Shown: piece by piece, positions 4,510-51,912 of the stretch
Numbering within the stretch: the stretch's first letter is position 1
Layout of the letters: the number at the start of each line of letters is the position of its first letter
Assembly: GCF_964204865.1 (NCBI RefSeq)
Contig: NC_135253.1
Location: 6,882,001-6,946,000 of the forward strand
DNA length: 64,000 bases
Direction: 5' to 3'
Source of the DNA: Styela clava
Taxonomy: Eukaryota
Notes under the pieces: generated by a model
What the model was told of the DNA's origin: nothing
What the model saw: the letters and a program-made list of their open reading frames with translations, nothing else
Databases searched by the model: none
Translations under genes and position numbers: made by a program

Positions 4510-5310
4510 TTACATACATTTATTTTTACAAGCCTGCTCGGTCAAGAAGTTGTTTTTGTTTGCTTGACATCCTCCCCATTCAAAATGGAGACAAACCTTG
4601 AGCTTTCTGTTGAAATAATATCTTGGTCTACGTGCAAAGCAAGGTCCCTTTTTTTTACGTTGGAGGCAATCAGGAACACAAGTATTTTCGCATTCGTCTA
4701 GGGTCGAAAAACGATTGGTATTTCCTTCAAATCCATGATATGTAAAGCTCAAGCATTGATGGTTTAGAAGCGGACTCGAAGAGTATCTGTGGTAAAATTT
4801 TGTGAGCAGAGCAAAACCTTTCCCAGAATCTTTTTTTAACTTGCACCGATCGGCCAATTTAGCTGAACACGACGAAATAGGTATTTAAATTAATGACAAT
4901 AACATACATATAATATATCTAAAGATATTTTTTTTATTCCTTCCACGGCGCTAATATATTCTAATTAATAAAAGAGCAATGCACAAATATATGGAAACGA
5001 AGAGCGAATGACTACCGCAATATCAGCAATCTTGAATATGAAATAGTTTCTAATAAGAAGAAAACAAAGAGTATAATTTGCCTCATACCCAAAGCGTGTT
5101 CCATGATGTACCGTTCCTAAGTTATACCCTAATAATTTGTTATAGTTACTAAAAAATTTTGCTGATGATACGTCTCTTGCAATTACCAATTTGATACTTA
5201 CCTTTAATTGATCGACGTTTTTTTGTGGAGCCAGCTGCACGTGACAATTCTGAGTAAAGCAGAAGAAGTATACAACAAACGGAAACGATGACTTTGAATT
5301 GTGACTTCAT
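4510..5310 (-). CDS. Secreted tandem Kunitz protein (4-Cys + 6-Cys domains); exons 5310-5202 and 4862-4510
   Basis: Exon 1 MKSQFKVIVSVCCILLLLYSELSRAAGSTKKRRSIK (signal peptide, gtaagt donor). Exon 2 C..GKGFA..C..FTYHGFEGNTNRF....C...C then C..GPCFARRPRYYF..C..FEWGGCQANKNNF..C...C*. Phases match, no lesions. Confidence 0.92.
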
Positions 5311-5415
5311 ATTTAAATTTTCTGTTTCTTAACTTATAGATCGCATAAAGCAAAATTATTTTGAAAAAATTGTAAATAGGTTATTGCAATGTAGTTACCA
5401 CATAACATGACACAA

Positions 5416-5421
5416 TTTATA
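5416..5421 (-). promoter_or_regulatory. Candidate TATA box of the 4510-5310 Kunitz gene
   Basis: TATAAA on the minus strand ~105 bp upstream of the ATG. Weak evidence in AT-rich DNA. Confidence 0.4.
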
Positions 5422-5509
5422 TACATACAAAACATGTAACATAAATTTTCTCCCCATATGAATTGAATAGAATACTTTAAACAGAATTGTTTCGAAGTGT
5501 GTTTTTTTT

Positions 5510-47579: not shown

Positions 47580-50500
47580 ATATATAGTTTATTGGGACGT
47601 GAGTGTTTGGGACAAAATTTAAATTTTTTAGTCACGGTTTAGTAAACTACAATATGCATATAAAAAATGAATAGATGTCAATTTGATCATCAAATAAAAG
47701 TTGCCAAAGATTTACAAACTTGATTTAACTCACTACCCCGTGTGGAATTCTCAGCATTGCGTGCCCGTCTTTTGTGTGAGCCGAATATTTTCTTGTCAAC
47801 TGAATATTTCTGTGAATGATAAAAGTCATTGTATTTATTTGGTTGTGGCTTAAATACAAATAAATAGCAATACAAGTGTACAAGACTCACAAAACGCGTT
47901 AACTATATATTTTATATAAATGGATCTTCAGACGTCCAAGGCCTGAAACTTATGAAACTTTTGATTTTGCAGGTCATCCAATTACTTTACATATTTTATT
48001 CTTTAGATATATCTATATGGTATGAAAAATCACCGCGTAACGTCTGCTAGGTGGTAAACCGACCTAACTAACAAATTCTGTAATATAAAACTGACTGCAG
48101 TCGTGTTTAACCACAGACCAGACCACATTTATGCGCGGTTACTAAAATATTATTCTCACACTATATTAATACACTAATCAGGAATAGACGAAGGATGTGG
48201 AACGGTCTAATGGAAATGAGATTGTGAGTGACGTAACCGTCAACAATTAAAAGTTAATTAGCGAATTCCTCATTTTTAATAAAGTAAAAAGATAACTCTT
48301 ATATTAATAAAACCATTTTAGTGGATGTCACAAATTTATACATGGTCTTATTATGTTAAATCGTGGAATCCGGGTATTTACTAACCGTTGAAATTTGTAG
48401 AATATAATCAGTGTCCTAGTCAAAATATATTTTTACCAATTCTAAGTTTAGTCTGCGTTTTGAGTACCAATTACTTTTAGGTCGAGTTCAAGTACTATCC
48501 AGTCCATGCATTAGTTTATTTGGCCGGAACAATGAATAACAAATGATCAAATTTATCACCCGTCACAAGTCTTATCAAATCTTTATCTAACAAATTCAGT
48601 CAAGTCGTTATGGAAAATATTTATTTGAATAATTTGAGTCAAGCTGAATTTGATTCCTCGAGACATACCACGAATAGTCCATCTATGCCACCACTGTTAA
48701 TTTTACTTACATTACGACTAAAAGAGGTGGTACTATTTGAAATATATAAAATACATATATTCCTTCTATGTTTCCGACTCTAAGACAAAAATTTGACGCT
48801 AATTTTAAATCTTCTATTGAAAAACATTAGAAAATATTTCAGCAGTTTTTTCCTTCACAATATATATAGATAATATCATTAGAGCTTTTATTCGTTTTCA
48901 CTCATTTCATGGGCTCATTATCTCAACCCAAAAAGATAATGAACTGATAATTGGTCCATCGTAATTTTGACCAATTTCACAAATTATGCAGAATGATTAA
49001 AAAAATTGAATGGATATTTTCTTCGAAACTGTACAAATGCCAATGTATCTATTTAATTACGGTATGTCGGGTTTTGTAATGGATTAATTGGATATTAATT
49101 CATACTGTTAAGCCATTTGTACATTTTTGCGGTTGGATATGTGGTCAATATTCATTCTTTGAATCTAAGTGGATATTTTGTTTTTTTTTACGAAAAGCGT
49201 GTGTTTGTCTTATCACTCATATTTTATTATGCATACAATAGCCATGTTCACCACTTGGGTAATACTTTTTCACGTGGTATATATCCGTAACACAAGTGAA
49301 TATATTGGCTCTATCATATATTTATATTGGGTTGTATGATATATGAACATTGAATGATAACATAAAGTTGAATCAATATTACAGATTTTTGCAAAATAAT
49401 TAAACTTGAAAAACATCACGATTCTCAAAAAAATGTTTTAATGTAGTCCCATTTAAAATGTATCCACTTGTCAATTATTTACGGCGCTCAAAAGTATTTC
49501 AAAATGATTTTAAAATGAAACCCTCCCTACTTTGCTACTCCCACATCAATAGAAAAACTTGAGATAAGTGGAAGTTGGCGCCCTATTTTTTTTTAGAAAA
49601 TTCCTATAAACGTGACAGTATATCCAAATAATGATTTCATAAATGCTTTCATTATGAGTCCACAATTAGATTCTGTCTGAATCGCTTCTGCAATATCATA
49701 CCGACACTGTGCGAACTAGATAAAAAAGTTGAGTTTTTTACTTTGAGTTCATTTACTCATAGTTTCTAACAAAGTTGATTGACTTTAAATTTAATCTCGT
49801 TAATTGAAATAATTAGACGCAATACGACACTATTTGACGCAAATTACGTTCCTTCATAATCGTGTGAAAAAAGTGAAATTCATTTTTGTGTCATTAAGTC
49901 TATGCCATGTTCGCAACGTTGTTAACGATATATCCATCATTTAGATAAGTTAATTCACATAATTACATACTCAACAAAATAGTTAAATAACAACGATGAT
50001 TTCTTGATTTGTAGTGAAATACGTATTACGTTTATTATGTGAAACTTTTAATCGGATTTACTTGAAATAAAAATAATCGAGTTTTAAATATTTTCATTTA
50101 ATTAATATGTTTTCAGAAATTGGAAAGTAATTATTGTATTATTCGTCAAAATAATTATATTGACGCACGTCATGAGACATTATTACTGTTACATCCAGGA
50201 AAAATGAACACTTTACGTTGAGCAAACAAATGAAAATTTCCCAAACTTTTTCAGTCATTTAGAAGGGTTGATAAATAACGTGATATACTTACAAAAATCA
50301 GTGATTTATAAGTAATTTTTAACAGTTTATACAGTTATAATGGGCAGCGTCGTTCCAAGTTTTAGACATTTTGTTTGGCTTTGAGGGGTAATTTTAGAAG
50401 TACGAAAAAATAAACTTTAAATGAATTCGAGCATAGAAAAACCTAACAATTTATATTGTTCAGTACGCTGTTGGAATTGTTTTGTGCAATCGGAAATCGA

Positions 50501-50755
50501 ATAAAAATTTTTTAAAACTTTAAGACAGATATTAAGACAAGAAAAATTCAGACACTCAACATAAATAATTTTTATTATTGACGTTAAAAAAGCAAATGCG
50601 TTTAAAGGCATTGGTTGTTTGAGCAGGCGCTGCTTCCAAAATATTAAAAAAAATCAACTAATATTTATATTGTATTATGAATAATAGCATTAACTGTTGA
50701 TAAATATTTTACAGTCCATTTGCAGTTTGATAAGAGAGAATAGAAAGAACAAAAC

Positions 50756-51912
50756 ATGCATGCAATAAAAGTACTTACAATTGTTGTTGTTGTTCTGGCA
50801 TCTGCATACAGCATCGAATACCATGAAGGTAAGACGATAAATACATTTTCCTATTTGTAATATATGATAAAGCAAAACGTCATCTTATGGATGATATAAT
50901 TGATGAATTGGTCTATTTCAAAATATCAAGTTACAATCGCGTCTTGTGGAAATTTAAGAAAATCACTAAAAAACTTTTGAAATTCATATGACATTGGGTA
51001 ATACTTATACTTAGAGAACACACTTTTTTTTTAGACAAATGCACCTCGAAACCTAACCCTGGAGCATGTAAAGCATTTTTACGTCGTTTTTATTATGATC
51101 CAAAAGAAGGAAAATGTAAGGTTTTCATTTTCGGTGGGTGTGGAGGAAACAGAAACAGATTCGAAACAAAAATTGATTGTGAAGAAGCATGTAATCCAGG
51201 TAAACTACTGTTTTTTTTCCAAATATATTTTGTTTAGCATCGTATTTTCAAGTGTGTCTGTATAGAAAATACTTTATGTTTGACTTTGGGCTTTCAAACC
51301 GTCTGTGACGAGGGATGTCAGTTGTGAAAAAATGTATACGCAATAATATGGTATAGTAGGGTAGGTGACTTAGAAACCCCAACATGTAGATGTGTCCCTA
51401 ACTGGAAATCAGAAATTTTTCTGATGTTCCCGGTTGTAAATAATACATGCAAAATGAGGTATGTCATTTATTATATGGACGCGATTCTGTACCATTTGAC
51501 CAGATCAGTCAGGTCGATGACCATCACAGCGGCCGATGCTAATAAATTTGTGGTTATCATTACCGATATATGAAAAAAGTCGGAGAAAAAAAACTTGATG
51601 TTCGGCTTGGCAATATTTTTATAATTTTACAGTATTTCATTGATTGAGAGGAATCGATGTAGTTTAAATTGTAGTAGTAAATGTAGTTTAAATTGGATGT
51701 AACAATGTAAATGGTTTTTCATTCATATTTCAGACATATTGTGTAGATTCCCACTCGATCACGGAGAAGGCGACGCCTTTTTTCGAGACTATTACTACGA
51801 TGAAGAAAAAGATGATTGCTTTGAGTTTCTGTACTATGGCTTCAAAGGAAATACAAATCACTTCTTTACTCGTACCGAATGTCTGTCTGTTTGTGGCTCT
51901 AAAAAGCGATAG
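50756..51912 (+). CDS. Secreted tandem Kunitz protein (6-Cys P1-Lys + acidic 4-Cys domain), 138 aa; exons 50756-50828, 51035-51199, 51734-51912
   Basis: MHAIKVLTIVVVVLASAYSIEYHE / DKCTSKPNPGACKAFLRRFYYDPKEGKCKVFIFGGCGGNRNRFETKIDCEEACNP / DILCRFPLDHGEGDAFFRDYYYDEEKDDCFEFLYYGFKGNTNHFFTRTECLSVCGSKKR*. Phase-1 GT-AG introns. Absent from the ORF track. Confidence 0.94.

Follow-up and report, generated by a model that had tools for sequence, protein, structure and literature searches.

Do the two-domain Kunitz proteins encoded in this part of the Styela clava genome, each of which pairs a canonical domain with one that lacks two cysteines, act as protease inhibitors, as channel blockers, or as something else? 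The window analyzed here is a stretch of 64,000 nucleotides of contig NC_135253.1 (positions 6,882,001 to 6,946,000, forward strand; assembly GCF_964204865.1). A first-pass annotation of these letters had reported three intact genes with both Cys2 and Cys4 replaced in one domain, and had proposed bifunctional secreted effectors in which an inhibitor is joined to a channel-, membrane- or exosite-binding module. We located all three motif pairs (near 4.8, 16.3 and 51.8 kb), and the genes that carry them, here called A, B and C, are intact. The Kunitz features of the window are as follows.

2522..2674, + strand: canonical Kunitz domain, interrupted by an in-frame stop in the window copy and open in two upstream copies
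3038..3190, + strand: canonical Kunitz domain of the same tandem unit as the 2522..2674 domain
4510..4862, - strand: gene A exon 2, two Kunitz domains in a single exon with a three-residue linker and the stop codon
4516..4668, - strand: canonical 6-Cys domain of gene A, net charge +11, P1 Phe
4678..4845, - strand: 4-Cys Kunitz domain of gene A, Cys2 replaced by Gly and Cys4 by Phe, P1-P1' Phe-Ala, net charge +2
5202..5310, - strand: gene A exon 1, coding for a signal-peptide-like stretch plus a basic N-terminal extension, protein identical in three tandem copies
5500..6060, - strand: broken copy of gene B, exon 2 frameshifts and truncated second domain, found in all three tandem units
16017..16354, - strand: gene B exon 2, 4-Cys domain followed by 6-Cys domain
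16023-16175, - strand: gene B 6-Cys domain, P1 Leu, net charge +12
16185-16337, - strand: gene B 4-Cys domain, Cys2 replaced by Gly and Cys4 by Ile or Asn, P1-P1' Leu-Ala, net charge +3
16543..16651, - strand: gene B exon 1, coding for a signal-peptide-like stretch plus a basic extension
50756..50828, + strand: gene C exon 1, signal-peptide-like stretch
51035..51199, + strand: gene C exon 2, encoding the canonical 6-Cys domain at 51040-51192, net charge +4, P1-P1' Lys-Ala
51734..51912, + strand: gene C exon 3, encoding the acidic 4-Cys domain at 51742-51894, Cys2 replaced by Gly and Cys4 by Phe
63795..63941, + strand: canonical Kunitz domain of a further cluster gene, P1 Lys; the gene appears to run past the window end

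Genes A, B and C (153, 148 and 138 aa) have open reading frames interrupted by GT-AG introns, are hydrophobic near the N-terminus, and each contains one 6-Cys and one 4-Cys domain; they encode small two-domain Kunitz proteins that are probably secreted. The 4-Cys domain precedes its partner in A and B and follows it in C, which bears out the two domain orders originally described. The 4-Cys domain of gene A carries a 5-residue insertion in its hairpin, and that of gene C has Asp at P1 and 11 Asp/Glu versus 5 Lys/Arg. The gene C product is identical in every letter to a database protein (P0002), and gene B has a 95% match to a 148-aa Styela clava protein. In the tandem cluster, 31 Kunitz domains were detected over ~190 kb, and gene A occurs there in three tandem copies, one of them the window copy. 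A word-based homologue search of limited sensitivity retrieved matches only in Styela clava proteins, and a search of the open-licence literature on Kunitz proteins in Styela clava, ascidians or tunicates found no paper on these genes.

Against a Pfam PF00014 cut-off of 21 bits, the exon carrying both domains scored 102 bits in A and 116 bits in B, and the two domains of gene C reached 70 and 56 bits. By the three-disulfide definition of the family one domain per gene qualifies, and the other corresponds to the known two-disulfide variant. Structure prediction, which the first-pass annotation had proposed as a check, gave an AlphaFold model of gene A with both domains folded (mean pLDDT 95), a prediction that depends on its 72-row Kunitz alignment, and Foldseek searches with this model matched Kunitz structures. 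Gene C folded from its single sequence without an alignment produced an unusable model (pLDDT 45), and the ESM Atlas returned generic Kunitz clusters only, below 0.9. A P1 residue of the MEROPS I2 type followed by a small P1' is present in both domains of the window copies of A and B and in the first domain of C; at P1 of the 4-Cys domain, C has Asp instead and the upstream gene A copy, A1, has Pro.

The gene B intron (splice 16354/16543) is spliced out in contigs of 4/4 probable RNA runs, none of which carries an RNA label in its record. A spliced A-type transcript agrees with the upstream copy A1, not with the window copy, at 26/28 listed differences; the missing contig cover of the window gene A is not evidence of silence.

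Loss of one Kunitz disulfide is a known variant in ticks, worms, frogs and venoms, and is not rare. The Cys2-Cys4 bond (BPTI 14-38) is missing in 139 of the 1040 Kunitz domains of public multi-Kunitz proteins, in both domain orders and with either charge, and 24/149 such proteins mix 4-Cys and 6-Cys domains within one chain. Gly stands at Cys2 in 136/139 of the domains lacking the bond, a hydrophobic residue at Cys4 in 65/139, and a residue other than Gly at position 36 in 128/139; we infer that Gly at Cys2, non-Gly at 36 and an often hydrophobic Cys4 are the usual structural adjustment to bond loss. The replacement of Cys2 by Gly with a hydrophobic Cys4 had been read as a sign of maintained function; the maintenance stands (see below), and the public counts do not support a special signature. 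Nor is the hydrophobic residue at Cys4 conserved in gene B, where Ile76 is Asn in the database protein P0001 and in the 3 runs that cover the site.

On balance, we think it likely that A, B and C are secreted double-headed serine protease inhibitors in a tandem ascidian cluster, and that the 4-Cys domain is a folded head, probably still target-binding, and not a channel toxin. Both heads of A (Phe/Phe) and of B (Leu/Leu) place Ala after a bulky hydrophobic P1. They would bind proteases of the chymotrypsin or elastase type, or microbial enzymes resembling these, in the way a substrate is bound; the strong positive charge of these proteins may retain them on polyanionic surfaces. The Lys-P1 head of C would inhibit a trypsin-like protease, and its acidic 4-Cys domain may dock onto a basic exosite in the manner of Ixolaris or boophilin. 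Two-disulfide Kunitz peptides are able to inhibit proteases: anntoxin inhibits trypsin with a Ki of 25 nM (PMC3721222), and LmKTT-1a, in which Cys2 aligns with Gly and Cys4 with Val, does so with a Ki of ~0.14 uM (PMC3616063). Counting against inhibition by the 4-Cys domains are simukunin, whose activity is lost on removing Cys14 (PMC3285612), the P1 Asp of gene C and the Pro-His of copy A1. If the inhibitor reading is true, ascidian double-headed inhibitors would be added to the known examples, and would offer a handle on the proteases they control (haemolymph clotting-like, complement-like, microbial or gamete).

The tick protein Ixolaris consists of two tandem Kunitz domains, the first of which (K1) has six cysteines. 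Its second domain (Ixodes scapularis; PDB 6NAN) is a two-disulfide domain with several anionic residues, and gene C has this same layout of a canonical K1 and an anionic two-disulfide K2. Ixolaris is a salivary anticoagulant that binds the heparin exosite of factor X and leaves its active site unused (PMC9424826, PMC3890586, PMC2561067), and its acidic K2 takes part in exosite binding (PMC9424826). The likeness to gene C lies in layout and does not imply common origin. In contrast, A and B have the reverse domain order and are basic; the best two-domain superposition on the predicted gene A model was that of Ixolaris (TM 0.57, rmsd 3.8). Boophilin (PDB 2ODY; PMC2230226) also resembles gene C in having a Lys-P1 domain first and an acidic domain second (11 Asp/Glu versus 4 basic residues, compared with 11 versus 5), and its acidic domain docks on a basic exosite (PMC2230226). 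It differs in its long linker and in having six cysteines in both domains. Of the modules first proposed, exosite binding has a direct precedent for gene C in the Ixolaris K2, and the K+ channel module finds no support. Anntoxin (2KCR), LmKTT-1a (2M01), conkunitzin-S1 (1Y62) and the tarantula sub-Kunitz toxins lack the Cys2-Cys4 bond as well, but these are single-domain peptides of skin or venom, unlike A, B and C. Their activities span trypsin inhibition to channel block, and the cysteine pattern, itself long known, therefore has no predictive value for function.

Rather unlikely, in our view, is an arrangement in which inhibition falls to the canonical domain alone and its 4-Cys neighbour serves, without inhibiting, as a spacer or as a module that binds a polyanion, matrix or exosite. 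C. elegans MLT-11 and other multi-Kunitz proteins resemble A, B and C in placing 4-Cys among 6-Cys domains (Kunitz domain 8 of MLT-11 lacks the same cysteines; PMC13181417), but they are large matrix proteins whose 4-Cys loops are seldom inhibitor-like, and most of these domains appear to be such modules. An inhibitor-type P1/P1' (K/R/F/Y/L/M then A/G) occurs in 12/139 public 4-Cys domains versus 414/895 canonical ones, and the P1 Pro of the expressed A1 copy and the P1 Asp of gene C fit the same picture. Against it, the window copies of A and B retain Phe-Ala and Leu-Ala at P1-P1' like their canonical partners, and the divergence among gene A copies is greatest on the 4-Cys binding loop. For gene C, a non-inhibitory module overlaps with the double-headed inhibitor that we prefer.

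The gene A copies were compared across the tandem units. Units 1 and 2 show differences at 100/2584 sites (3.9%) of their non-coding and pseudogene DNA, whereas the counts in gene A are 31/168 (18.5%; p 1e-11) for the 4-Cys domain and 17/153 (p 2e-4) for the canonical domain. Differences peak on the 4-Cys loop (15/50), the 4-Cys hairpin (10/50) and the canonical loop (10-12/50), and outside the gene A exon the maximum count per 168-base window is 16. Amino-acid changes affect 6/9 P5-P4' positions versus 12/43 elsewhere (p 0.05, for a region picked post hoc with the data already in view), and with both loops pooled the comparison is not significant (7/15 versus 11/37, p 0.34). Units 2 and 3 differ at 8/168 in the 4-Cys domain, with no excess over the flanks (p 0.15), and Gly12, Gly14 and Phe38 are retained in the copies despite silent changes. 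This loop-focused divergence between recent gene A copies is new here, and suggests selection on the target-binding loop. Nevertheless, silent sites are raised in the divergent tract too (5-7 codons), making a retained old tract as likely as pure positive selection. Recent conversion from B into copies 2 and 3 of gene A was considered and dropped, silent sites being saturated. Selection focused on loops is also described in venom Kunitz families (PMC5107962), and loop divergence consequently does not name the target.

In copy A1, the 4-Cys domain has Pro-His at P1-P1' and the canonical domain has Met in place of Gly12, which makes it a poor fit to canonical inhibition. Conceivably, although we regard it as improbable, the cluster combines an Ixolaris-like exosite inhibitor (C), built independently by a chordate that has no venom, with a two-disulfide head in the gene A copies whose freed loop selection is now diversifying towards a new, possibly non-protease target (Pro stands at P1 of the expressed copy), and it would then capture Kunitz inhibitors in the course of becoming toxin-like binders outside venom. 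The three-copy series, in which almost identical flanks surround loops that differ sharply, is of specialist interest and allows a direct test of whether loss of the 14-38 bond lets the loop switch target.

The first-pass annotation had also contrasted charge, with Lys/Arg-rich proteins in two genes and an Asp/Glu-rich 4-Cys domain in the third. Between the 4-Cys domains themselves there is no strong contrast of this kind: the acidic side holds for gene C (net charge -6), but a strongly basic side does not (+2 in A, +3 in B). The whole proteins carry +20 (A), +22 (B) and -1 (C), and most of the positive charge in A and B comes from the canonical domain (+11 and +12) and the N-terminal part (+8). 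With pI values near 9.8 and fast change between copies and alleles, A and B could be mainly cationic antimicrobial or membrane-active defence proteins with the Kunitz fold as a stable charge carrier, and cationic peptides derived from TFPI-2 are reported to be antimicrobial. We consider this distinctly improbable: a charge carried mostly outside the 4-Cys domain implies nothing special for that domain, canonical domains of this genome range from -6 to +12 with 7/50 at +7 or higher, and gene C falls outside such an explanation altogether.

Synonymous sites are saturated between A and B, while at the protein level the 4-Cys domain (dN ~0.42-0.44) has diverged to the same extent as its canonical partner (dN 0.36-0.42). 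This supports 4-Cys domains that are maintained and not decaying. Among recent copies and alleles, dN/dS is near 1 (0.7-1.1 for the 4-Cys domain), and exon 2 of the gene B alleles has 7 amino-acid-changing versus 2 silent codons, values that relaxed constraint could also explain; the cluster also contains broken copies. Degenerating passengers under relaxed selection are nonetheless very improbable, as Cys2 and Cys4 are lost pairwise with the remaining four Cys kept, the mature part of gene C shows no difference between two database versions, and the divergence of the A copies lies above the neutral rate, for which relaxation alone is not enough.

Ascidians are filter feeders and are not known to have a venom apparatus. 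A conkunitzin-like K+ channel blocker, as the lost bond had originally been read, with the proteins as bifunctional inhibitor-toxins, is hardly credible despite the shared two-disulfide pattern and the weak Kv1.3 block (IC50 1.58 uM) by LmKTT-1a with its same Gly/hydrophobic replacement, given that conkunitzin-S1 blocks Shaker just as well once its bond is put back, anntoxin and LmKTT-1a inhibit trypsin, the potency arginines (Conk 34, 48, 49, 54 = BPTI 32, 46, 47, 52) occur in 0/5 cluster 4-Cys domains (gene B alone having Lys at BPTI 32), PDB sequence searches place the first conkunitzin at rank 22 and 29, and the 4-Cys domains are weakly basic or acidic.

Regarding the origin of the 4-Cys domains, the five in the cluster group at 89/85 in a tree built without the Cys2 and Cys4 columns. 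Trees that join the 4-Cys domains with their positional 6-Cys homologues have an equal or better fit (lnL +1.0 and +4.6, p-AU 0.54 and 0.63), and a single clade of all nine 4-Cys domains is not rejected (p-AU 0.44), in comparisons of forty-nine columns, too few to settle monophyly. A three-domain ancestor from which different domains were lost was considered, and the data neither favour nor disfavour it. Position 36 changes convergently in 4-Cys domains.

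Genes A, B and C are real, maintained and partly expressed. They belong to a Kunitz cluster that spans some 190 kb (G000:C4:6853000-7045000) and contains no fewer than 31 detected domains, with domain net charges from -6 to +12. The window occupies G000:C4:6882001-6946000 in eukaryotic DNA (33% G+C in the window), and the species named by the database matches for the cluster proteins is the ascidian Styela clava.

Gene A, minus strand: 153 aa, two-domain Kunitz, intact, GT-AG intron
Gene B, minus strand: 148 aa, two-domain Kunitz, intact, GT-AG intron
Gene C, plus strand: 138 aa, two-domain Kunitz, intact, GT-AG introns

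All three products begin with a hydrophobic stretch that, by its appearance, resembles a signal peptide. The gene C product is identical to database protein P0002; its sole difference from an earlier database version is V6I. The gene B intron is spliced out in contigs of 4/4 probable RNA runs (two studies). A spliced A-type contig in run X1 agrees at 26 of 28 listed differences with A1, the upstream gene A copy in tandem unit 1, and is thus evidence for A1 and not for the window copy, A3.

As the first-pass annotation had described, one domain per gene lacks both Cys2 and Cys4 (the BPTI 14-38 bond; 4-Cys domain), the first in A and B and the second in C. As to the opposite charge it proposed, the 4-Cys domain of C is acidic (-6; canonical domain +4), but A and B carry +2 and +3 there versus +11 and +12 in their canonical domains, so it is chiefly the canonical domain and the N-terminus that make these two proteins basic. 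Conserved glycine at Cys2 with a hydrophobic residue at Cys4 had been read as a signature of maintained function. The gene B residue at Cys4, however, is Ile in the window versus Asn in database protein P0001 and all three runs covering the site. Additionally, we counted regularly spaced domains in the 149 other best matches of a representative search, a set skewed to long multi-Kunitz proteins: both cysteines are missing in 139/1040 domains and one in only 6. These 139 domains have Gly at Cys2 in 136 cases, a hydrophobic residue at Cys4 in 65 and a non-Gly residue at position 36 in 128, with net charges from -8 to +7, and the supposed signature is therefore the standard form of the two-disulfide variant. 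Both domain types are mixed in 24 of the 149 proteins (26 4-Cys-to-6-Cys and 17 6-Cys-to-4-Cys neighbour pairs).

At least 69 Kunitz matches were obtained genome-wide with Pfam, and a motif scan of the surrounding stretches found 60 domains, one of which was removed as false; 9 of the remaining 59 lack both cysteines, five in the window's cluster and four on two other contigs. The nine-exon Kunitz array L053 (G000:C18:10071324-10078756), which we take to resemble papilin, has three exons without Cys2 and Cys4, and a lone 4-Cys exon (L049:5166-5318, G000:C10) has Gly at Cys2, Ser at Cys4 and Arg at P1. Published precedents for the missing bond are conkunitzins, Ixolaris, tarantula sub-Kunitz toxins and TKDP-3 (PMC2561067), tick group G6 (PMC3890586) and MLT-11 domain 8 (PMC13181417). 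Both the structural variant and the architecture were known before, and the cluster genes add further members.

Both domains share one exon in A and B. In gene C each domain has an exon of its own and the introns are phase 1; a two-domain gene located farther on in the cluster, with canonical domains only, has the same exon boundary as C. In the tree, the five 4-Cys domains of the cluster group at 89/85. A scenario in which the cysteines were lost independently, from domain one in A/B and from domain two in C, fits equally well. The two orders do not require a domain swap.

Genes A and B have reached saturation at synonymous sites (23-25 differences in about 30), and dN is 0.42-0.44 in the 4-Cys domain versus 0.36-0.42 in the 6-Cys domain, which argues for equal long-term constraint on both and bears out the maintenance part of the earlier claim of maintained function. 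Gene A also belongs to a unit, made up of gene A itself, a broken copy of B and two Kunitz domains on the plus strand, that occurs three times, although some of the three could be uncollapsed haplotypes rather than copies (reported heterozygosity 1.72%; PMC7540406).

G000:C4:6852500-6889300: three tandem units (L033, L034 and window 300-7300), 91-94% alike
Window 2522-2674, plus strand: Kunitz domain with an in-frame stop; both upstream copies open

Far greater divergence is confined to unit 1, in exon 2 of gene A. Between units 1 and 2, 100/2584 non-coding and pseudogene sites differ (3.9%), versus 18.5% of sites in the 4-Cys domain of gene A and 11% in its canonical domain. Divergence peaks at the 4-Cys hairpin and at the two binding loops, and the core between these peaks is near background. 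P1, P1', P2' and P4' are all changed, and Gly12, Gly14 and Phe38 are retained through silent changes. Several findings complicate a straightforward interpretation: silent sites are likewise elevated, dN/dS is close to 1, no excess is seen between units 2 and 3, and enrichment in the loops is borderline (p 0.05 for P5-P4', p 0.34 once the second loop is included). The pattern would be explained by positive selection or, equally, by an old divergent tract retained against homogenisation. Either explanation would imply that the loop sequence matters.

Structure prediction had been proposed as a check, and the two-domain part of gene A, modelled with a 72-row alignment, folds at pLDDT 95 with its 5-residue insertion placed in the hairpin turn. 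Foldseek returned Kunitz inhibitors, with Ixolaris as the closest two-domain superposition. The predicted model shows a sequence compatible with the Kunitz fold and says nothing on function.

We consider it fairly probable that all three are double-headed protease inhibitors, A and B acting on hydrophobic-P1 proteases and C combining a trypsin-type head with an acidic exosite module. In A3 and B the 4-Cys loops look inhibitory, which sets them apart from 127/139 public 4-Cys loops; the corresponding loops of A1 and C do not look inhibitory. The anionic, two-disulfide K2 domain of Ixolaris is described as its main exosite contact (PMC9424826), the acidic second domain of boophilin docks on thrombin exosite I (PMC2230226), and Botryllus rejection reactions are reported to feature a Kunitz EST resembling TFPI-2 together with thrombin-like proteases (PMC2527998). 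The suggestion of a K+ channel blocker fared poorly: none of the five cluster 4-Cys domains has arginine counterparts of the residues tied to conkunitzin potency in a preprint (10.1101/2020.06.15.153577), and the best conkunitzin ranks 22nd and 29th in PDB sequence searches. Conkunitzin-S1 with the bond added is reported to block Shaker equally, and anntoxin to inhibit trypsin while hardly affecting potassium currents (PMC3721222); LmKTT-1a is a trypsin inhibitor and weak Kv1.3 blocker (PMC3616063). The sequence comparisons would be compatible with weak channel block and give the channel reading no positive support.

Other features of the window are as follows.

23147-28565, minus strand: several open frames of 100-206 residues with no matches in a Pfam search, possibly exons of one gene
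57207-58268 and 60518-61033, minus strand: 353-residue open frame and partial second copy; its only match, to Peptidase_C97 (PPPDE), is weak and below cut-off (E 0.014)
33915-34968, minus strand: rhodopsin-family GPCR exons (PF00001, E 9e-9); close by lies an N-terminal exon rich in Asp and Tyr
7545-7886, 9177-9645, 10355-10844 and 12917-13465: four minisatellite arrays with a 16-base repeat, located between genes A and B and found in both orientations

The minisatellite arrays yield spurious Cys-rich open frames.
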